Positions 1 to 44,074 of a DNA stretch of 44,074 bases are shown in pieces. This stretch comes from a virus. The translations under genes and the position numbers were made by a program. Position 1 is the first letter of the stretch. Each line of letters starts with the position of its first letter. Under the pieces are notes generated by a model that was given only the letters and a program-made list of their open reading frames with translations, ran no database searches and had not been told where the DNA came from. The stretch lies in the UHGV virus genome UHGV-0043902. One strand, 5' to 3'.

Positions 1-870
1 ACCGGTGTCGCCTTTAGGTCCTGGGACACCCTGTGGGCCGGTGTCGCCTTTAGGTCCTGGGACACCCTGTGGGCCGGTGTCGCCTTTTAGCCCCGGTGCA
101 CCTTGTGGGCCGAGCACCCTGTGGGCCGGTATCGCCTTTAGGCCCCGGGGCGCCTTGTGGGCCGGTGTCACCTTTTGGTCCCGGTTCACCCTGCGGACCG
201 GTGTCACCTTTAGGTCCTGGGACACCCTGTGGGCCGGTGTCGCCTTTTAGCCCCGGTGCACCTTGTGGGCCGGTGTCGCCTTTTGCCCCCGGCTCACCCT
301 GTGGACCGGTGTCGCCTTTTGGCCCCGGTGCACCTTGTGGACCGGTATCGCCTTTTAGCCCCGGTGCACCTTGTGGGCCGGTGTCGCCTTTAGGCCCCGG
401 CTCACCCTGTGGACCGGTGTCGCCTTTAGGCCCCGGCTCACCTTGTGGACCGGTGTCGCCTTTTAGCCCCGGTGCACCTTGTGGGCCGGTGTCGCCTTTA
501 GGCCCCGGCTCACCCTGTGGACCGGTGTCGCCTTTAGGCCCCGGCTCACCCTGTGGACCGGTGTCGCCTTTAGGCCCCGGCTCACCCTGTGGGCCGGTGT
601 CGCCTTTAGGCCCCGGCTCACCCTGTGGACCGGTGTCGCCTTTTAGCCCCGGTGCACCTTGTGGGCCGGTGTCGCCTTTAGGCCCCGGTGCACCCTGCGG
701 ACCAGTATCACCTTTCGGACCCGGAGCACCCTGTGGACCGGTGTCGCCTTTTAGCCCCGGTGCACCCTGCGGACCAGTATCACCTTTCGGACCCGGAGCA
801 CCCTGCGGACCAGTATCGCCTTTTGGCCCCGGCTCACCCTGTGGGCCGGTGTCGCCTTTAGGCCCTGGTG
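1..870 (-). repeat. Tandem 36-bp coding repeat array (about 24 units) encoding collagen-like Gly-X-Y repeats ([14 protein letters not shown]) inside the side tail fibre gene; runs off the window start
   Basis: Direct 36-nt periodicity visible in the sequence (ggtgtcgcctttagg(c/t)cc(c/t)gg...caccctgtgg(g/a)cc); translated minus strand gives perfect [10 protein letters not shown](E/A)P units. Confidence 0.9.
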
Positions 871-1456
871 TTTTAGCTATTTTCCTTGCTTCTTCCAGAG
901 CCTTGCAGGCACCAGATTCATATTCCATGGCATCTATTGTTGCCTGTTCTGCCCGACTGGCATTTTGTTCGGTGTCTCTGGCCAGCACATAGGCTTTCTG
1001 CGTATTTTCGGCAATAGCATCAGCATCCTGCCGTATTCCTCTGGCAAGCGTTTCTGTAGTCTGACGAGCCTGTTCAGCGGCGAATGCATGTTGTTCTGCT
1101 TTTTTTTCGCTTTGCTTTACCTGTACTACCATTTCTTCAAAACGCAGCACAACATCTGGTTTGAGATCGCTTTCATCGAGAGCGGTCAGAAAATCGTTTA
1201 ACGTGCCAGGCTTTGAGTCATCGTATACAGCAATATCGCCAACACAGTACTCGTCGCGCCAGTCCTGTTTCAGATATACGCAGTATTTTCCGGTCTGCGC
1301 CTTAAAACAGTACTCGCCACAGTTTCCTGTCACCACGTCGGCAACCGTGTGCATCACCACCTCTGAGGTGTTTACCCGGGATTTCAGAATTATGTGGCAT
1401 CCGGACATGGGGATGCCTGCGCCATCAATCAGCGCACCTGATATCACTACAGACAT
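50..1456 (-). CDS. Side tail fibre protein, lambda Stf-like N-terminal domain followed by collagen-like repeats; 3' end frame-disrupted within the repeats (possible pseudogene or assembly collapse)
   Basis: ORF track 468 aa; N-terminus (..[13 protein letters not shown]..) resembles the lambda Stf N-terminus from memory; about 24 Gly-X-Y units; frame breaks near nt 100-125 where one repeat unit is about 20 nt short. Confidence 0.7.
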
Positions 1457-1479: not shown

Positions 1480-2025
1480 TCAGGAAGAGGCTTCCGGAGT
1501 GACGGGCCATTCAATGGCGTTATATGAGGTTTTATCAGTGATAATGTTGAAATCCATCGCCTGCAGCGATTTCGCGTAAATGCGGTACGCTTTCAGCTTC
1601 TCCCTGTCTTCGTCACTGATTAATCCCAGCAGCAGGTCTTTTTCCCATTCGCTGGTCATGATGCTGACCTGTTTTAACAGGGCATCACGCTCATCTTCCG
1701 CTTTAAGTTTGTAGTCAAAAACAAATTCATCATTGCGGTAGAACCAGTAACCCGGTGCGGTAATGCGGCGGTTAGCGGTAATATCAGGAACTTCAATAAC
1801 ACTGGCGTTACGGGGTTCAATACCTGTCACATCCTTACCGACCCACACCACGCGCCCGTCTCCGGTGTAAACCATTTTTATGGTGTCACTGGCAAAGTTC
1901 TTCTGTTCTTCATACCAGTTTTTGCCGTCTTCCGAAAAAAGCCAGGTGACACCATATTGTTTTGTCAGCTGATATTGTTCCGCGGTTTTCGGATTACCCG
2001 CAGTAATATTTTTTAAATGTAACAT
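1480..2025 (-). CDS. tfa: Tail fibre assembly chaperone (Tfa family)
   Basis: 181 aa; N-terminus MLHLKNITAGNPKTAEQYQLTK...WLFSEDGKNWYEE typical of Tfa chaperones (lambda/Mu/e14); immediately downstream of a fibre gene. Confidence 0.8.
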   Translation of the reverse strand: MLHLKNITAGNPKTAEQYQLTKQYGVTWLFSEDGKNWYEEQKNFASDTIKMVYTGDGRVVWVGKDVTGIEPRNASVIEVPDITANRRITAPGYWFYRNDEFVFDYKLKAEDERDALLKQVSIMTSEWEKDLLLGLISDEDREKLKAYRIYAKSLQAMDFNIITDKTSYNAIEWPVTPEASS

Positions 2026-5435: not shown

Positions 5436-5975
5436 ATGAAGAAATTAATTTCATTGCTAATTGCATCCACTCTTTCATTTTCAGTATGCGCTCAAGAAGA
5501 AGACAATTATCATACCCGTCTAATAAGAGCTGCCTGCAACGATGCCATGCATAAATTACAGCTTCAATATGGTCGGCGTTTTATATGCCATACTGATAAT
5601 TTTACTGCCGGAAATATGAATGCCGCATACTTATCTGATTCTGTTTATGGGAAATCGGGAATAATGTTAATGAAATTCGGTAATGTTTATTATGATAATC
5701 CCAGCCATCCAACCCATGACACATTACATTATTCCTACAATATACAAGACATGAATACGGCCATTTCTTTAATTGTCAATGGGGGCGGTTTAAACGATCA
5801 GCAAATAAATTATCAAATTTGTAAAAAAGCCATTACAGATACCAAGGAGAAAATAAAGAAAAACAATAAAGATTATCTAGACAAAAAGATAGATCATAAA
5901 ACTTATGAGATAATGAATTCAGTTTTCAATGACTCGATAAAAAATTTTGAAAAATGTGTAGCTGAAAATAAGTAG
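5436..5975 (+). CDS. AT-rich moron encoding a secreted protein of unknown function (Sec signal peptide, Lys-rich C-terminus)
   Basis: 179 aa; N-terminus MKKLISLLIASTLSFSVCAQ-EE is a Sec signal peptide; SD aaggataagttATG; composition visibly AT-rich compared with flanking phage genes; opposite strand to the tail operon. Confidence 0.7.
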   Translation: MKKLISLLIASTLSFSVCAQEEDNYHTRLIRAACNDAMHKLQLQYGRRFICHTDNFTAGNMNAAYLSDSVYGKSGIMLMKFGNVYYDNPSHPTHDTLHYSYNIQDMNTAISLIVNGGGLNDQQINYQICKKAITDTKEKIKKNNKDYLDKKIDHKTYEIMNSVFNDSIKNFEKCVAENK

Positions 5976-6239: not shown

Positions 6240-6797
6240 ATGACCAGCCAATTAATTCCCGTATTCAACGGCATTGTTTCAAACGAAACTACTCTTCTCT
6301 GCAACGCTCGCGATCTGCACACCTTTCTCGAAGTAGGTAAACGCTTTGCTACTTGGATCACCGAGCGAATCGGCGAGTATGAATTCATAGAAAATCAGGA
6401 CTACATAGCTATTTCCCAAAAACGGGAAATAGGTCACGGACGAGGGAAAAAGGACTACCACCTCACCCTAGACACTGCCAAAGAGCTGGCAATGGTCGAG
6501 CGCAACGAAAAAGGCCGCCAAATCCGCCGATACTTTATCGAATGCGAGAAGAAGCTGCGCGAAGATACCACCAGCACACAATCCCCTCTGAATGTTGACA
6601 TCATCATGCGCGTCAGAAACGGTTCTGTTACCCACATTGAGCACCACAAATCAGGCTCAGTTATAACCACAGAATGGGCAATTCACTTACTACGCAAAAG
6701 TGGATGGATTGTCATGCCACGCGATGAACTTCTTAACACGCCACTGGCCCAACTGATGCACGAAAACTTGCCTCAAACCGGAACCTGCGTCCGGTAA
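6240..6797 (+). CDS. Putative antirepressor-like protein (AntA/KilA-N-like N-terminal domain)
   Basis: 185 aa; N-terminus LIPVFNGIVSNETTLLCNARDLHTFLEV...WITERI..YEFIENQDY resembles phage antirepressor N-domains; SD gaggtttctATG; opposite strand within the tail region, analogous to P22 immI. Confidence 0.45.
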   Translation: MTSQLIPVFNGIVSNETTLLCNARDLHTFLEVGKRFATWITERIGEYEFIENQDYIAISQKREIGHGRGKKDYHLTLDTAKELAMVERNEKGRQIRRYFIECEKKLREDTTSTQSPLNVDIIMRVRNGSVTHIEHHKSGSVITTEWAIHLLRKSGWIVMPRDELLNTPLAQLMHENLPQTGTCVR

Positions 6798-18774: not shown

Positions 18775-20089
18775 TGTTCAGGCTCCCTTGAGTGTTAATT
18801 TTTGCCAGACGACGCCCCGGAATTTTGAAGGCACTCAGCCAGACGTTCGGATCGCCCTGATATTCAGTAATGCGACGCCCGGCTTCATCGTTGCGGATAC
18901 GTTTATGCAGTTGCCCCTGCGTACTCATCATTTCTTTTTCGATGGACTGACGGGCGGCACTGAAAATTGCGTCCTCAAGCACAGCCAGCGTTGCAGAATC
19001 CGCAATCGCGCGAATATTGACGTCCTTATGTGCTGGAGAGTGTTTCTGCATAGCGATTAGCGCACGCTTGCGGTAGTCCAGCGCATTTTCACCAGAAAAC
19101 GGTGCTGGCGCGTTTTTACCGCAGGCACTGAATGCGGAGTCGGCTTTTGCCTGCGCTTCTGCCAGGGCAGAATCATTGCGTTCTTTTTCTGCCTCCTCGT
19201 CGGCCTTACGCTGTTCTTCTGCTTCGGAATCAGCCTTTGCTTTCTCCTCAGCATCTTTGGCTGCTGCCTCGTCAGCTTTGGCTTTTTCTTCCGCCTCCTT
19301 TGCCGCAGCTTCATCAGCTTTACGCTGTTCCTCTGCGGCTTCATCGGCTTTGGCCTTTTCTTCGGTCTCTTTTTTCGCCTGCTCTTCGGCATCCGCCCGC
19401 GCTTTGTCCCGCTGTTCCAGTGAGTCCATGCGCGTAACGACACCATCGATTTTCTGATTAATGCCTTGCAGGGCATCGCTCACAACCCCCTGTAACAGGG
19501 CCTGGAGTTCTTCTTTTTCCATCTCGATTTCACCTGTGTTTGTCACTTCAACCCCTGCGGGGATCCGGTCTTTATCCCACACGCCCAGCGAGCCGTGGGC
19601 TTTCGTCACCAGGGCGATGTGATCAACCAGGAAAGGAACGCCCTCGATTAAAAAATTGGTGTCACCTTCCTGTACTTCCACATTTCCTGATGTGCTGTTG
19701 AACACCACCGACGGGCTTGTCGAAACATCCCCCTCAGCGATTTCTTCAACAATGCTCTGGAGGTAAACGCGGCACACCGCCCATACCTCATCACCCCGGA
19801 TATACGGCAGCATGACGCTACCGACGATCCGCGATTTAAAATCCTCCTCCGTCAGAACTGCGTCGTCAGGATGGTTTGCGATAACCGGAAGGCCATTGCA
19901 TCGCCTTAAAAACTCCTCGTTCAGATAGAGCTTTGGATCACGCCAGACGTGCTCTTTCAGCCCGGCGCGATAGGCAAGCCCGGTTCCGGTTATTCGCAAA
20001 TTCACCAGCCACATGTTGGAGAATTTCACCGGAGACGGTACGGTTCCGTCCCTGATGCGTTCTGCCACTTCAAGCTCGGTTAAACTCAC
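18767..20089 (-). CDS. Head scaffold or protease-scaffold protein with charged coiled-coil repeat region
   Basis: 440 aa; central low-complexity E/K/A repeats (KADEAA.EQRKADEAAAKEAEEKAKAD...); located between the head morphogenesis and capsid genes. Confidence 0.5.
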   Translation of the reverse strand: MSLTELEVAERIRDGTVPSPVKFSNMWLVNLRITGTGLAYRAGLKEHVWRDPKLYLNEEFLRRCNGLPVIANHPDDAVLTEEDFKSRIVGSVMLPYIRGDEVWAVCRVYLQSIVEEIAEGDVSTSPSVVFNSTSGNVEVQEGDTNFLIEGVPFLVDHIALVTKAHGSLGVWDKDRIPAGVEVTNTGEIEMEKEELQALLQGVVSDALQGINQKIDGVVTRMDSLEQRDKARADAEEQAKKETEEKAKADEAAEEQRKADEAAAKEAEEKAKADEAAAKDAEEKAKADSEAEEQRKADEEAEKERNDSALAEAQAKADSAFSACGKNAPAPFSGENALDYRKRALIAMQKHSPAHKDVNIRAIADSATLAVLEDAIFSAARQSIEKEMMSTQGQLHKRIRNDEAGRRITEYQGDPNVWLSAFKIPGRRLAKINTQGSLNNG

Positions 20090-20903
20090 GTTTGCCCTTC
20101 TCCGTTAAAAATTCGTCGGGTAGTTTCTGAGGGGCGTAGATCGGCAGTGCATCGCAACTGCAATAAACCTCCTCCCCGGCAGCAGTGATTTCGTCATAAA
20201 AACCATATACGGGCTTAATCAGCCCCTGCTCCAGCGCCCACGAATCGCGGAGGAGGTAAATTTTCTCGTCGCGCTCTTTGTGGTCCTGTCGGTATTTGTA
20301 GCCCGGACGCCGCCAGTTAGAATGCCAGCGCAGAGCAATCGCTCCACTCTGAACAGCCAGCAGATACTTAACGTTGTTTGCCAGCTTATGCCCCTGATCA
20401 ATTGCCACCCGGCGACTGATAAAATCCATATCCTTCACGGACTTCTGAAAACCGGACTTCACTTCCCGGCGATCAATTTCGCTCACCCCGTCAGGCGGAA
20501 TGGCCGTAACCCATCCCTGAAAACGCTGTATGGTTTTCTCGATAGCCTGTTCGCGGTTGAGTTTTATCAGGTTGGCACTGGCGAAAATTCGCCTGTCGAG
20601 TTCCTTACGAAACTCAGGTTTCAGTTTTTCAACAGTGATTTTTTTAGGGCCATCAGGAGGCTGATCCCGTAATGCCCCGCCGTCGATGACAAGACGGCTG
20701 TAGATAGCGGTGAGATGTTTTCTGGCTACGGTATCATCAGGGGTTTCTCGCTGAGCGGCTACACGGAGTTTCCGGCACCATTCGAGCAATGATTTTTCGC
20801 TATCCCACCCGTGATTTACGTAGTAGTTAACGGCATCCGTCAGAACCTCATACAGCGTCCTGATCCGTTTCTTCTTCCTCACCGCCCGGCTGGAAATTGC
20901 CAT
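20070..20903 (-). CDS. Head morphogenesis protein (SPP1 gp7 / Mu F-like minor head protein)
   Basis: ORF track 20070..21041; start at ATG 20903 with SD aggagacgcctgATG; follows the portal. Confidence 0.45.
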   Translation of the reverse strand: MAISSRAVRKKKRIRTLYEVLTDAVNYYVNHGWDSEKSLLEWCRKLRVAAQRETPDDTVARKHLTAIYSRLVIDGGALRDQPPDGPKKITVEKLKPEFRKELDRRIFASANLIKLNREQAIEKTIQRFQGWVTAIPPDGVSEIDRREVKSGFQKSVKDMDFISRRVAIDQGHKLANNVKYLLAVQSGAIALRWHSNWRRPGYKYRQDHKERDEKIYLLRDSWALEQGLIKPVYGFYDEITAAGEEVYCSCDALPIYAPQKLPDEFLTEKGKREFNRA

Positions 20904-22284
20904 CAGGCGTCTCCTGCTTCGGTGGTTCATAATTCGCCAGCGCGTCCACATCAATGATGAGTGGAGCTTCGCCATAGGTTTGCGTGGCATTAACAAGGCT
21001 TGCCAGCCATTCAGTGACGGCGGCACGGTTTTCAGGATCAACCTGTGGCGACACGGCAGAGAAAAGTGCTATCGCCTGTTGAATCACTTTACTGTCGCTT
21101 TCCCGGCGTTTGTCCGGCGACTCCTCCACCAGCTCCTGCCATGTCGCGGTAAATTCACGTCGCCACTGGTAAAACGTGGTTTTATAGTCATCAGTTATGA
21201 TGTCCGGGTAATCATTTTTCAGCGACTGATAAAATTCCTCGTTCCAGGCGATGTACTGCACCAGGCGTTCGAAATAATCCATCACGGGTTCAATCTGCTG
21301 GCGTACACCATCGATATACTGGCTGATAGCTTTCGAGTCCTCCTTACCTTCACCGAATCCGTTACTGAACGCTTCTTCCTTGATAATAATGGCCGGAACG
21401 TCACTCCCGGCGGCAATATCAGCAATGATGTTGTCGCGGGATGTATTCAGCGCCCCGTCGATGTTTTGCAGGTTCAGTGAACTTACATCTTCGTCTTTTC
21501 CAATACTCAACACGCCTTTATTTTTGGCGGCTTTCACGTTTTCCCTTTTACGCCCCGTGGCAGCAGCCATGATCCCGTCAATTTTCGAACCGTTCTGCAC
21601 AACTTTAGCCACCAGTACGCCTGCCTTCTGGCTGACGAGATCATTCGCCTCCATCGTATTGATATAGGATTTCAGGGAATAAAGAACTCGCTGAAACACG
21701 CTTCGCCCGGTGAATCCGAACGATGAACTCTGAAACTCCAGATAAATCGGTGTGCCGTTGAAGATTTTCAGTGTGCGTGACGGATGCCAGTCTTTTCCGC
21801 CAATCTTCAGTTTTTTATTGGCTTCCTGGAAAAACGGGCTGTTGGGGTTCTGGTCAGTCACCATCGAACCGGAAGCGTTCAACGGGTCCCACGCGTTGAT
21901 ATACACGTCATCTTCTGTCAGTCCGAACGTCGGAAGCGGTTCACGACATGAAACACTGTCGGTGCCCACGCCGATCGCTGCGGCACCGTAGCAACGAGAC
22001 AGAAAAAACAGATTTTTAATCTTCTCGTTAACCTTCATACGTTCCCATACCTCCTGGAAACGCCGCACAACCCGCTCGTCAGGGTCTGTCTCCACGTTGT
22101 ACTGGCGCGGCTTACACATCGCCATCAGTATGGGTTTTTCGACAAGTTTCCCGCCCAGCGGGTGGTACTGCCACAGCAGTTTACACAGTTCATAGCCAAT
22201 GTCGGTTCCCGGCTGAATTTCTTCAGCCTCAAGAATGCGCATCAACGAAGAACTGAGATTTACAGAAATCTCGATCTCAGCCAT
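20848..22284 (-). CDS. Portal protein
   Basis: 478 aa ORF immediately downstream of terminase large subunit; acidic C-terminus. Confidence 0.6.
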   Translation of the reverse strand: MAEIEISVNLSSSLMRILEAEEIQPGTDIGYELCKLLWQYHPLGGKLVEKPILMAMCKPRQYNVETDPDERVVRRFQEVWERMKVNEKIKNLFFLSRCYGAAAIGVGTDSVSCREPLPTFGLTEDDVYINAWDPLNASGSMVTDQNPNSPFFQEANKKLKIGGKDWHPSRTLKIFNGTPIYLEFQSSSFGFTGRSVFQRVLYSLKSYINTMEANDLVSQKAGVLVAKVVQNGSKIDGIMAAATGRKRENVKAAKNKGVLSIGKDEDVSSLNLQNIDGALNTSRDNIIADIAAGSDVPAIIIKEEAFSNGFGEGKEDSKAISQYIDGVRQQIEPVMDYFERLVQYIAWNEEFYQSLKNDYPDIITDDYKTTFYQWRREFTATWQELVEESPDKRRESDSKVIQQAIALFSAVSPQVDPENRAAVTEWLASLVNATQTYGEAPLIIDVDALANYEPPKQETPDGNFQPGGEEEETDQDAV

Positions 22285-23632: not shown

Positions 23633-24713
23633 TATCCACTCCCGGCATCGGCAAAGAGTTGTGGATAATTATTTCGTTATTCTCACCACCCACGCCTTTT
23701 TTGAGGTTTTCAATCTCAGTGCGCAGCTTTTCGTTCCGAAGCCTCAGTCCTTCAAGCTCCAGATCATTGCGACTGTCAGTTGCACCACCAGCAGAACTTC
23801 CTTTCGTCGCCATTATCAGCTTGATAAGTTCGCGCCGGGCGGCAGCCTTATTCTCCAGCAGGATCTCAACACCAAATTTCCCGAGCTTTGCCCCTGCATA
23901 TAATTGCCGCGCATCCCCATCAAGCAGAGTGGTATCAGCCATATAAAGCTGCCCCGTTCCCTCACCGCAGCACTTCGGGCAGTCCGGATTGGGTATGGCG
24001 TTATCAACAAAGCCGAGGCCTCCATATTCCGGCTCGGGTTTGCCATCTCTGGAGGCCTGTGCCGCTGCCTTATCGAATTCTGCAATATCACGCCACTGGT
24101 AGAGATGATTCTCGCCCCAGCAATAACGGCAGTTAACACGGCGAAATTGTGCCAACTGATTGGGGTCGGCCTGGACAATGGCCATCAACTGACTCACCAG
24201 TAAATCCAGGTCTGCGGTATAGCGTTTCTGGTACTGATTGCGGAAGTAGCTGATGGCACGATAAACCTTAGGATTTCTTAGGAGCTGGCTGGCGGTTACG
24301 TAGGCCGCATTCCCCTCTGACTCGTATCCTGCCAGGCGATATGCCTCAACGAGTTTTTTCCCCTGGGCAACCAGCATTGCGAATTTCGCCTGCTGGTCTG
24401 AAATACCGAATTCATCGGGACAGAACGAAATTTCTTCCGCATCGCCCTCATTCAGGTACGCATCGGATACTGGCTTTTTTTCCTGAGATTTTCCGTTCCG
24501 CTTTTGCGCAGTCTGCGCAGGTTTTTTCTGCGCACTTTTTTGCGCAGTTTTGCGCAATTCTGCCTGCGCATTTTTCGGAGGTTTTTTGATGTAACGACGG
24601 GCTGTTGCGTAATTCAGTCCCCTTGCTTCACACCATGCCACCGGAGATATACCGGAGCGGGTGTATTCAGCAATATACTCCTGCTGCAACGCCCCCCAGT
24701 CCGGTCTGCTCAT
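23622..24713 (-). CDS. Terminase small subunit (Terminase_2-like core with extra N-terminal HTH and C-terminal Cys4 region)
   Basis: 363 aa; core motif AKFAMLVAQGKKLVEAYRLAGYES...ASQLLRNPKV; N-terminal GLNYATARRYIK HTH; C-terminal CRYC...CPKCC; overlaps the TerL start by 11 nt. Confidence 0.7.
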   Translation of the reverse strand: MSRPDWGALQQEYIAEYTRSGISPVAWCEARGLNYATARRYIKKPPKNAQAELRKTAQKSAQKKPAQTAQKRNGKSQEKKPVSDAYLNEGDAEEISFCPDEFGISDQQAKFAMLVAQGKKLVEAYRLAGYESEGNAAYVTASQLLRNPKVYRAISYFRNQYQKRYTADLDLLVSQLMAIVQADPNQLAQFRRVNCRYCWGENHLYQWRDIAEFDKAAAQASRDGKPEPEYGGLGFVDNAIPNPDCPKCCGEGTGQLYMADTTLLDGDARQLYAGAKLGKFGVEILLENKAAARRELIKLIMATKGSSAGGATDSRNDLELEGLRLRNEKLRTEIENLKKGVGGENNEIIIHNSLPMPGVDNVD

Positions 24714-29204: not shown

Positions 29205-29279
<75 letters not shown>

Positions 29280-29282
29280 ATA

Positions 29283-29358
<76 letters not shown>

Positions 29359-29597
29359 ATTGGTTCTTCAGGGGAGCGATATCACCAAGCAAAGAAGAGT
29401 CCCCCCCCCCTCAGAACCGTTTTCGATGATACGATTTAATATTCCAATCGCAACAACACTTTACGTCAAGTTATGTAAATTAATTTATATGTTTTTATTT
29501 TATGTGAATAATTCACTTTCACTTAAAATATACATAACAATATATAAACAAATTTATTTTGAAGGCGATTATTAAATGTCGTTTCTTATATCACACC

Positions 29598-31477: not shown

Positions 31478-31725
31478 NNNNNNNNNNNNNNNNNNNNNNN
31501 NNNNNNNNNNNNNNNNNNNNNNNNNNNNNNNNNNNNNNNNNNNNNNNNNNNNNNNNNNNNNNNNNNNNNNNNNNNNNNNNNNNNNNNNNNNNNNNNNNNN
31601 NNNNNNNNNNNNNNNNNNNNNNNNNNNNNNNNNNNNNNNNNNNNNNNNNNNNNNNNNNNNNNNNNNNNNNNNNNNNNNNNNNNNNNNNNNNNNNNNNNNN
31701 NNNNNNNNNNNNNNNNNNNNNNNNN
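31478..31725. other. Assembly gap (248 N); true length and content unknown
   Basis: Run of n characters in the sequence. Confidence 1.
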
Positions 31726-40263: not shown

Positions 40264-42282
40264 ATGAGCACCGATAAACAAGTTTACCCACTGTATTACG
40301 AAGCAAAAAATGACAAAGTAAGAAAACGTCTCGGTATTAAAGGCGGTTTCTACTGGGCTGAAGCGAAAAAATTATCCATTGCCATCTCCCGTGGTGCTGT
40401 TGCGATTGACGATGCTGGCTACGATGAAGATGACTTTAAAAAACCTGTTCGCGTCAATTTGCCCGTTGTTGATGACCTTCCACCAGAAGGCGTATTTGAT
40501 ACGGAATTCTGCAACCGTTACGAAAAAGGCGGGGAAGATGGCATCACAATGGTATTTATCGCGCCCTCATCCTCTGCGCAGGACAAACCAGCCAGCACTG
40601 ACAATACCAATGTTAATGGCGAAGACATGACGGAGATTGAGGAGAATATGCTACTCCCGATTTCCGGTCAGGAGCTGCCCATTCGCTGGCTTGCTCAACA
40701 CGGCAGCGAAAAACCGGTGACGCACGTTTCACGCGACGAACTCCAGGCATTACACATTGCACGAGCTGAAGAACTACCAGCTGTTACTGCCCTGGCTGTT
40801 TCCCACAAAACCAGCCTGCTCGACCCGCTGGAAATTCGCGATCTCCACAAACTGGTGCGTGATACTGACAGAGTTTTCCCTAATCCAGGCAATTCAAGCC
40901 TGGGGCTGATGACTGCTTTTTTCGAAGCATACCTGGACGCAGACTACACCGATCGTGGTCTGCTGACAAAAGAGTGGATGAAAGGGAATCGTGTTTCACG
41001 CATCACGCGCACGGCTTCCGGCGCTAATGCTGGCGGCGGGAACCTCACCGATCGCGGCGAAGGTTTCGTTCACGATCTGACGTCACTGGCGCGCGACGTA
41101 GCCACTGGCGTACTGGCTCGTTCAATGGACGTGGACATTTATAACCTTCATCCGGCACACGCTAAACGTGTCGAGGAAATTATCGCTGAAAATAAACCGC
41201 CCTTTTCTGTTTTCCGCGACAAATTCATCACCATGCCTGGCGGGCTGGATTATTCCCGCGCCTTCGTGGTTGCGTCCGTAAAAGAAGCACCAATTGGGAT
41301 CGAGGTTATCCCCGCACACGTCACTGAATATCTAAACAAAGTACTGACTGAAACTGATCATGCCAACCCTGATCCAGAAATCGTGGATATTGCCTGCGGT
41401 CGTTCCTCTGCCCCGATGCCGCAGCGTGTAACAGAAGAAGAAAAACAGGATGATGAAGAAAAACTGCAACCATCTTGCGCAATGGCAGATGAACAGGCAA
41501 CGGCTGAAACAGTGGAACCGGATGCAACTGAACATCATCAGGACACGCAGTCGCTGGATGCTCAGTCACAGGTAAATTCTGTTGATGCGAAATATCAGAA
41601 ACTGCGGGCAGAACTCCATGAAGCCCGGAAAAACATTCCGCCCAAAAATCCTGTCGATGCAGACAAATTACTGGCTGCCTCTCGCGGAGAATTTGTTGAA
41701 GGGATTAGCGACCCGAATGATCCGAAATGGGTTAAGGGGATCCAGACCCGCGACTCTGTGTACCAGAATCAGCCAGAAACGGAACATAACGACCAAAAAG
41801 CGGAACAGAACGACCCAAATACGCAACAAAACGAGCCAGAAACGAAACAGCCTGAGCCAGTAGTGCACCAACAGGAAACGGAGAAAGTTTGCATCGCCTG
41901 CGGTCAGGCTGGCGGCGGCAACTGTCCTGACTGCGGCGCGGTGATGGGCGACGCAACGTATCAGAAAACCTTTAATGAAGAAAATCAGAATGAATATCAG
42001 GAAAAAGGTCTGGAGGAAATGGAAGGTGCTGAACATCCGCACAAGGAGAACGATGGCAGCGATCCGCATCGCGATTGCAGTGATGAAACTGGCGAAGCAG
42101 CAGCTTCATCATTAGAAAAACTCGACTGGAAAAGACAAGTGGTGATTGCAGCGGTTTACGGTTTATGTGCAAATCCTGCGGGTATAGCCTCAGCGCCATT
42201 AATTCCGGGTATTGCAATGATGATTGCAAACAAACTTGAAAATTTTGGGGTGACGGATGATGAGTACATGCCCAATTTTTGA
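40264..42282 (+). CDS. recE: RecE-like protein lacking the C-terminal exonuclease domain; ends in a novel hydrophobic tail
   Basis: 672 aa; long stretches resemble the dispensable N-terminal two-thirds of Rac RecE (from memory); terminates with ..[42 protein letters not shown]..; overlaps the gam start. Confidence 0.5.
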
Positions 42283-44024: not shown

Positions 44025-44074
44025 GCGCAGCCATAAAGCTCACAGGAGAAAAACCAGTGCTATACACAAAAGTC

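Follow-up and report, generated by a model that had tools for sequence, protein, structure and literature searches.

Near the first base of the virus genome UHGV-0043902 (44,074 nt; hereafter the window, i.e., the whole stretch of DNA analysed) lies a gene for a collagen-like tail fibre in which one unit of a tandem 36-nt array is incomplete, the reading frame shifts and a stop codon follows. The initial annotation, made from the letters alone, had offered three readings of this break: a genuine inactivating indel, a phase-variable contraction of the array, or a collapse of the array during assembly. We asked which of these readings best accounts for the structure of the gene, given the same gene in other assemblies and the way in which such repeats are assembled from short reads.

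Anatomy of the array and of its frame break

Tandem Repeats Finder detected a 36-nt period at positions 114-865 (20.9 copies, score 965) and a second stretch of the same period at 2-112 (3.1 copies). Such an array is far above chance expectation, and its G+C content is 67.5%, compared with 48.9% in the rest of the window. Read along the minus strand from 868 to 113, the array consists of 21 complete, in-frame units, each ending in E, A or V, which together encode 84 uninterrupted Gly-X-Y triplets. These are followed at 112-97 by a partial unit of 16 nt, its initial 20 nt missing, which shifts the reading frame by one base. Beyond it, the array goes on in the wrong frame for two full units and a further 24 nt, and runs off at window base 1. 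The total of 24.1 units agrees with the earlier estimate of about 24, and the description of one unit as some 20 nt short, with a shifted frame and with repeats that continue to the window edge, was accurate. A stop codon does follow the break, but it is a TAA at 50-52 and not, as initially given, at 47-49.

The truncated open reading frame matches the Collagen family (PF01391, E=7e-43), while the phage fibre repeat PF03406 was found neither in it nor in its intact homologue. By analogy with related fibres, the N-terminal PfN domain is presumed to anchor the fibre to the tail or baseplate, and the long helix modelled for residues 106-195 appears to match the PCoil trimerisation region of the E. 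coli EPcl proteins (discussed below). Judging from its sequence, the fibre would be a trimer with a collagen triple helix. Coordinates of these and other features are collected in Table 1.

Table 1. Features of the collagen-like fibre locus in the window, with the loci of the paralogous fibre in the closed genomes
Feature	Position	Strand	Basis or remark
Terminal block, out of frame with the ORF	1..111	-	Block comparison; exact copy of RSHH22 gene nt 1258-1368
Truncated ORF, prophage collagen-like accessory tail fibre, 468 aa	50..1456	-	First 588 nt 100% identical to the intact 1983-nt RSHH22 gene
Frame-breaking partial unit, 16 nt; junction between 112 and 113	97..112	-	Coding strand ...GGTGCT / CGGCCCACAAGGTGCA; 1 nt microhomology
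21 in-frame collagen units, string ABCDCEFGHHE IHEJKLM PQR	113..868	-	36-nt unit typing
Exact 77-nt repeat; R21-R24 of the closed-genome array (4 units, 144 nt) absent inside	207..283	-	Skip invisible to k-mers of up to 78 nt
Exact 79-nt repeat; R12-R13 of the closed-genome array (2 units, 72 nt) absent inside	466..544	-	Skip invisible to k-mers of up to 79 nt
PCoil-like stalk, predicted single long alpha helix (aa 106-195)	872..1141	-	AlphaFold2 single-sequence model, pLDDT 74-91
PfN N-terminal domain (aa 1-130)	1067..1456	-	PF08400, E=6.3e-59
Tail fibre assembly protein (Tfa), 181 aa, immediately upstream of the collagen-like fibre	1480..2025	-	PF02413 Caudo_TAP, E=2e-23
Primary tail fibre of the contractile tail, 517 aa	2028..3581	-	RefSeq 'phage tail protein'; between the baseplate genes and Tfa
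Scaffold gap, 248 N	31478..31725		Corresponds to 244 nt of RSHH22 overlapping a Hok/Gef gene
Second-prophage paralogue, SK6988	1,352,032-1,354,194		
Second-prophage paralogue, RSHH22	near 2,846,055		
Second-prophage paralogue, M8	near 1,449,048		

The same gene in closed genomes and in other assemblies

The same prophage is present in three closed genomes of mouse E. coli, namely RSHH22, SK6988 and M8. Between positions 869 and 44074 the window differs from RSHH22 by three SNPs and the length of one poly-C tract; all four differences fall within 869-31477, and 31726-44074 matches without a single mismatch. Two of the SNPs are synonymous and the third (29248) is located in a tRNA-Gly gene, beside the anticodon loop. 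In all three closed genomes the fibre gene is an intact ORF of 1983 nt (660 aa) with 27 units, which are followed by three divergent Gly-X-Y units to give 120 triplets (aa 198-557). The intact homologue has a stronger match to Collagen (PF01391, E=2e-60) and a C-terminal domain assigned to PF21882, Gp53-like_C (31 bits, cut-off 24.9); this knob also matches those of R-type pyocin fibres weakly (6CT8 and 6CL6, E ~5e-6). On the 3' side of the intact gene lie a DUF4376 gene and a DUF1353 gene, after which the chromosome resumes at pphA. RefSeq lists the protein from these strains as WP_263536089.1 / WP_213952594.1 ('prophage tail fiber N-terminal domain-containing protein'). It represents the same gene, in the same prophage, as the window copy: there is no difference over the first 588 nt, and it contains each block of the window array as an exact substring. 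Unlike the window copy, it is intact, has 27 units and a C-terminal knob, and is without the 16-nt partial unit.

Alignment with RSHH22 resolved the window gene into four exact blocks of the RSHH22 gene: nt 1-991, 1064-1322 and 1467-1561, and then back to 1258-1368. Expressed as a string of unit types, the RSHH22 array reads ABCDCEFGHHEHEIHEJKLMNOEMPQR; the window array is this string minus HE and minus NOEM, followed by the end of an L/E-type unit (16 nt), then M and N in full, and then 24 nt from the start of O. Two kinds of discontinuity can thus be told apart. The first kind consists of two in-register skips, one of 2 units within an exact repeat of 79 nt and one of 4 units within an exact repeat of 77 nt; the assembly passed correctly through repeats of 71 and 73 nt, and this pattern fits the expected output of an assembly graph with k of about 77. 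The second kind is a single seam, which joins gene nt 1561 to nt 1258, i.e., 304 nt back, out of register and with 1 nt of microhomology. The 111 nt after the seam, which comprise the end of unit 19, units 20 and 21 and the start of unit 22, are an exact copy of array sequence skipped by the main path. At any k of 78 or less, the window gene contains no k-mer foreign to the closed relative, apart from those that cross this one seam. The seam-spanning 25-mer is GGGTGCTCGGCCCACAAGGTGCACC; the continuation expected in its place is GGGTGCTCCGGGTCCGCAGGGTGAGCG. Searches for the seam in metagenome, viral and species-representative collections, and a megablast search of 5426 complete E. coli genomes, gave no match. 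A look-up of the truncated 468-aa protein likewise returned no identical record, and the start of the array had no match in the viral and metagenome collections.

To compare alleles, we looked up the identical Tfa protein, which is encoded in at least 24 public contigs, and read the gene downstream of it. The eight other alleles have 3, 26, 27, 27, 27, 28, 30 and at least 32 units, and all are in frame. The comparison of unit number between isolates, which the initial annotation had proposed as a check, revealed variation in length (3 to at least 32 units) that always preserves the frame. Besides the three closed genomes, five assemblies are in frame across the array (3-32 units). Altogether, none of the nine other assemblies of this gene (the closed genomes and six more) leaves the frame within its sequenced part, seven can be read to the stop codon, and the seam is absent from every one. 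Each array that could be read to its end finishes with ...MNOEMPQR before the C-terminal part. The shortest version, a 3-unit fibre of 372 aa, was found in GCA_040086125.1 (L010) and in a k=31 Logan assembly of SRR29305383 (L006), with identical N- and C-terminal parts; this may be a genuine short allele, or the array may have collapsed completely. Four draft contigs terminate within the gene or shortly beyond it. Two of them stop inside the array and a third 92 nt beyond it, while the fourth, which carries a different allele, stops in the C-terminal domain. None of the four contains the out-of-register seam, and their ends at this gene indicate that the locus routinely breaks short-read assemblies.

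All three closed relatives also carry a second prophage, which adjoins fadR/nhaB in SK6988 and has a paralogous fibre of 720 aa with 32 units and with DUF4376 and DUF1353 genes of its own. The window gene and the paralogue are identical over nt 280-588, with 107 mismatches in nt 1-279, meaning that their N-terminal domains differ. At the end of the array, both genes share an exact stretch of 89 nt (gene nt 1489-1577, i.e., units Q and R plus 17 nt), and the two loci diverge in the DUF4376 gene, more than 500 nt past the array. In an assembly graph of the two loci, the 89-nt stretch forms a branch for any k of up to 89, and the main path of the window ends at nt 1561, inside this stretch; the branch would explain why the path was not continued into a C-terminal domain that otherwise looks unique. 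From the near-identity of the window to the closed genomes, we infer that the source strain carries the paralogue too. In M8, the copy of the gene considered here (L004, 3045-5027) has 27 units arranged as a mosaic, with blocks of 88 and 136 nt that exactly match the array of the second prophage, and the sequences suggest that units have been exchanged between the two co-resident fibre genes.

Assembly artefact or rearrangement

We consider it probable that the frame break and the stop codon are artefacts of assembly and that the real gene is intact. The assembly collapse is the best supported of the three readings initially proposed: other assemblies of the same prophage carry the gene intact and in frame, including the 27-unit version of the three closed genomes, and the window array itself combines skipped loops with a misplaced piece of 111 nt. 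The gap of 248 N, which the initial annotation had rightly pointed to elsewhere in the assembly, identifies the source as a scaffolded draft. Such a draft, built from short reads, would have failed to resolve the array: a graph with k of about 77 would have dropped two loops at the exact 77- and 79-nt repeats, the path would have halted where the array meets sequence common to the second-prophage paralogue, and a misplaced 111-nt piece of the same array would have been abutted to the contig end. The apparent short unit would then be the seam between the main path and the misplaced piece, and the shift of frame and the stop would both be artefactual; window base 1 would presumably be a contig end as well. 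In keeping with such an origin, the sequences on both sides of the seam are exact copies of the true array and only the k-mers across it are novel, and independent assemblies of the same element are without it. The seam is also unlike a product of slippage, since it is out of register in spite of abundant in-register homology. If it is indeed artefactual, the gene in the real genome most likely resembles its near-identical relatives, with about 27 units, 660 aa and 120 triplets. Its product would be an accessory tail fibre in which a PfN domain is followed by a helical stalk, then by a long Gly-X-Y triple helix and, at the C-terminus, by a small knob, with the trimeric state and the roles of the domains deduced from homology. 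As the collagen triple helix rises by about 0.29 nm per residue, the intact stalk would be roughly 100 nm long, if triple-helical.

Three considerations keep us from holding the artefact with greater confidence. First, when we computed the unitig boundaries of the two-locus graph with k from 31 to 127, none of them fell at either end of the misplaced block (nt 1257/8 and 1368) or at the point where the main path terminates (nt 1561). We also reconstructed rules by which overlapping pieces might be joined, and none of them yielded the seam, though the skips fit a k of about 77. Second, a graph assembler should not invent k-mers. Third, the other drafts stop cleanly. As the four draft contigs that end at this gene are free of it, an out-of-register seam of this kind does not arise routinely in assembly; an assembler that relies purely on a de Bruijn graph makes no new k-mers, so the seam should either have been present in some reads or stem from a step of scaffolding or gap closing. 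Similarly, the two in-register skips could equally be true losses of units, given that the number of units differs among strains.

Some of these considerations lend weight to a reading that we nevertheless regard as rather unlikely, namely that the seam is real and marks a strain-specific, out-of-register rearrangement. Its simplest form is a tandem duplication of 304 nt (gene nt 1258-1561), or, equivalently, a duplication of 8 units with a deletion of 20 nt. This single event yields exactly the observed junction of nt 1561 with nt 1258, and an assembler would be expected to stop soon past that junction because the remainder duplicates what precedes it. It is also unusual for a graph assembler to output k-mers that no read contains, other drafts simply stop in or near the array without a seam, and the array does change in nature, as the range from 26 to at least 32 units among strains and the mosaic of M8 illustrate. 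Against this stand the nine assemblies in frame, the failure to find the junction in any other genome or collection searched, and the four small changes relative to RSHH22, which leave little time for a rare non-homologous event. Moreover, a microhomology of 1 nt implies an illegitimate event where in-register homology dominates, and the first copy would in addition need to have lost NOEM, whether truly or by collapse. Were the seam real, the fibre would be cut off from its C-terminal knob and the primary fibre would be kept; the truncated product would probably be non-functional, since folding of the triple helix, by analogy, is likely to start from the knob. On this doubtful view, the 304-nt out-of-register duplication would have knocked out one of a pair of paralogous fibres carried by the same strain, and the two arrays would also exchange units, as the M8 mosaic hints, meaning that recombination between prophages would diversify both the length and the presence of fibres.

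We find it quite improbable that the seam is missing from the consensus genome and derives from a small share of the reads, whether these came from a subclone or from chimeric molecules in the library. Such an origin would reconcile the read support that graph assemblers need with the intact relatives, and a G+C content of 67.5% together with tandem repeats favours chimeras and uneven coverage; however, PCR chimeras in arrays normally form in register, via homology, and assemblers usually remove paths of low coverage. Scarcely credible is a contingency locus with phase variation, in which the fibre would be switched on and off as the array contracts and expands: unit number does differ between strains, and the array is recombination-prone with a paralogue in the same genome, but the 36-nt unit is a multiple of three, so that a change by any number of complete units leaves the frame intact, none of the eight other alleles is out of frame, the lone frame break is not a whole-unit change, and there is no slippery heptamer near the junction. 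We thus rejected the phase-variable contraction put forward initially. Programmed ribosomal frameshifting was likewise rejected, as the 50 nt on either side of the junction contain no X XXY YYZ heptamer and the gene of the intact relatives is read without a shift.

The finding has little biological import; fibres of this architecture were characterised in 2012, and an intact version of this gene is already annotated in RefSeq. The practical lesson is that GC-rich arrays of 36-nt collagen units, especially where a second prophage carries a paralogue, are collapsed or broken by short-read assemblers, and that frameshifts, stops and copy numbers from such drafts should not be read as pseudogenes or phase variation.

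Relation to known fibres and prophage context

Both the class of fibre and its pairing with a contractile tail have already been described. The EPcl proteins of E. coli prophages (EPclA-D; Ghosh et al. 2012, PLoS One 7:e37872, PMC3368898) consist of PfN, PCoil and Col regions and a globular C-terminus. Circular dichroism, light scattering and electron microscopy established EPclA as a trimer with a collagen triple helix, whose refolding is nucleated by the C-terminal domain, and the collagen domains of the family differ in length by multiples of three residues (PMC3368898). The window gene shares with these proteins PF08400, a predicted helical region, one long (Gly-X-Y)n stretch and, in its intact form, a globular C-terminus, as well as its place in a prophage tail-fibre module. 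It differs from classes A and B, which are defined by PfC (PF06820), in that the intact homologue has PF21882 (Gp53-like_C) instead, and so resembles only the minor classes C and D with their 'other' C-termini, classes that are loosely defined. It also differs in the contractile tail of its host prophage and in the length of its collagen domain, which is 360 residues when intact, compared with 322 in the longest by far of those studied by Ghosh et al. (PMC3368898). For specialists in phage fibres, the points of interest are thus that 120 uninterrupted triplets are unusually long for the class and that the number of units differs among close strains.

The initial annotation had also drawn attention to a lambda-type Stf N-terminus on a contractile tail. 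This combination was correctly recognised, given the PF08400 domain and a tail sheath gene, but it is not new: phage phiP27 (NC_003356, L54-L57), which has a contractile tail, carries a fibre, a Caudo_TAP-type Tfa and an Stf-N fibre in the same order (L54-L56). Nucleotide identity between phiP27 and the window is about 93% over some 370 nt covering the end of Tfa and the N-terminus of the fibre; similarity ends after the N-terminal part, and we found no nucleotide match in phiP27 to the 36-nt array. Stf of lambda and its homologues in the cryptic prophages of K-12 likewise combine PF08400 with a nearby gene of the Caudo_TAP type. The shaft of lambda Stf, however, has PF03406 repeats and belongs to a non-contractile tail, whereas that of the window fibre is collagen-like, without PF03406; many of the other sequences that we matched do carry PF03406. 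More broadly, the Tfa/Stf-N junction is present in 166 of the 5426 complete E. coli genomes, and collagen-like fibres are widespread in phages, with 1653 phage records matched by tblastn.

On the same strand and upstream of the primary fibre, the prophage encodes a phrog_8212 protein and a Baseplate_J protein and, further upstream, a baseplate hub, a tape-measure-like transglycosylase, a tail sheath (phrog_205, 4e-55), a portal and a large terminase; the sheath, hub and Baseplate_J together identify the tail as contractile. The module of baseplate and fibre genes is interrupted by two genes on the opposite strand that look like cargo. One (5436-5975, plus strand) encodes a protein of 179 aa with a hydrophobic N-terminus resembling a signal peptide, and the other (6240-6797, plus strand) an AntA/AntB antirepressor according to RefSeq. 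The early region resembles that of Rac: in the twin prophage, RefSeq annotates RalR, RecE, Kil and YdaS/T there. The window ends at 44074 within ralR, where the flanking sequence is single-copy in RSHH22.

The RSHH22 counterpart of the scaffold gap overlaps an annotated Hok/Gef toxin gene and its downstream region, and it is plausible that this is a multi-copy element which broke the assembly there. The prophage also carries two tRNA genes, tRNA-Gly (anticodon tcc, 29205-29279) and tRNA-Thr (anticodon tgt, 29283-29358). Just past the latter, at about 29401-29410, lies the poly-C tract that is C10 in the window and C9 in RSHH22, the sole indel outside the array; it could be a sequencing error or a true change in length. 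The gene at 20848-22284 (minus strand) is a portal by comparison with PHROGs (phrog_146, 1.4e-74), and its RSHH22 counterpart is labelled 'anti-CBASS protein Acb1 family protein' in RefSeq, a label which may be wrong unless the protein is a fusion. Finally, other short tandem arrays, each of 2-4 copies, were detected at 19229-19321 (unit of 42 nt), 24502-24575 (36 nt) and 41773-41849 (21 nt), the last of them within the RecE-like gene.
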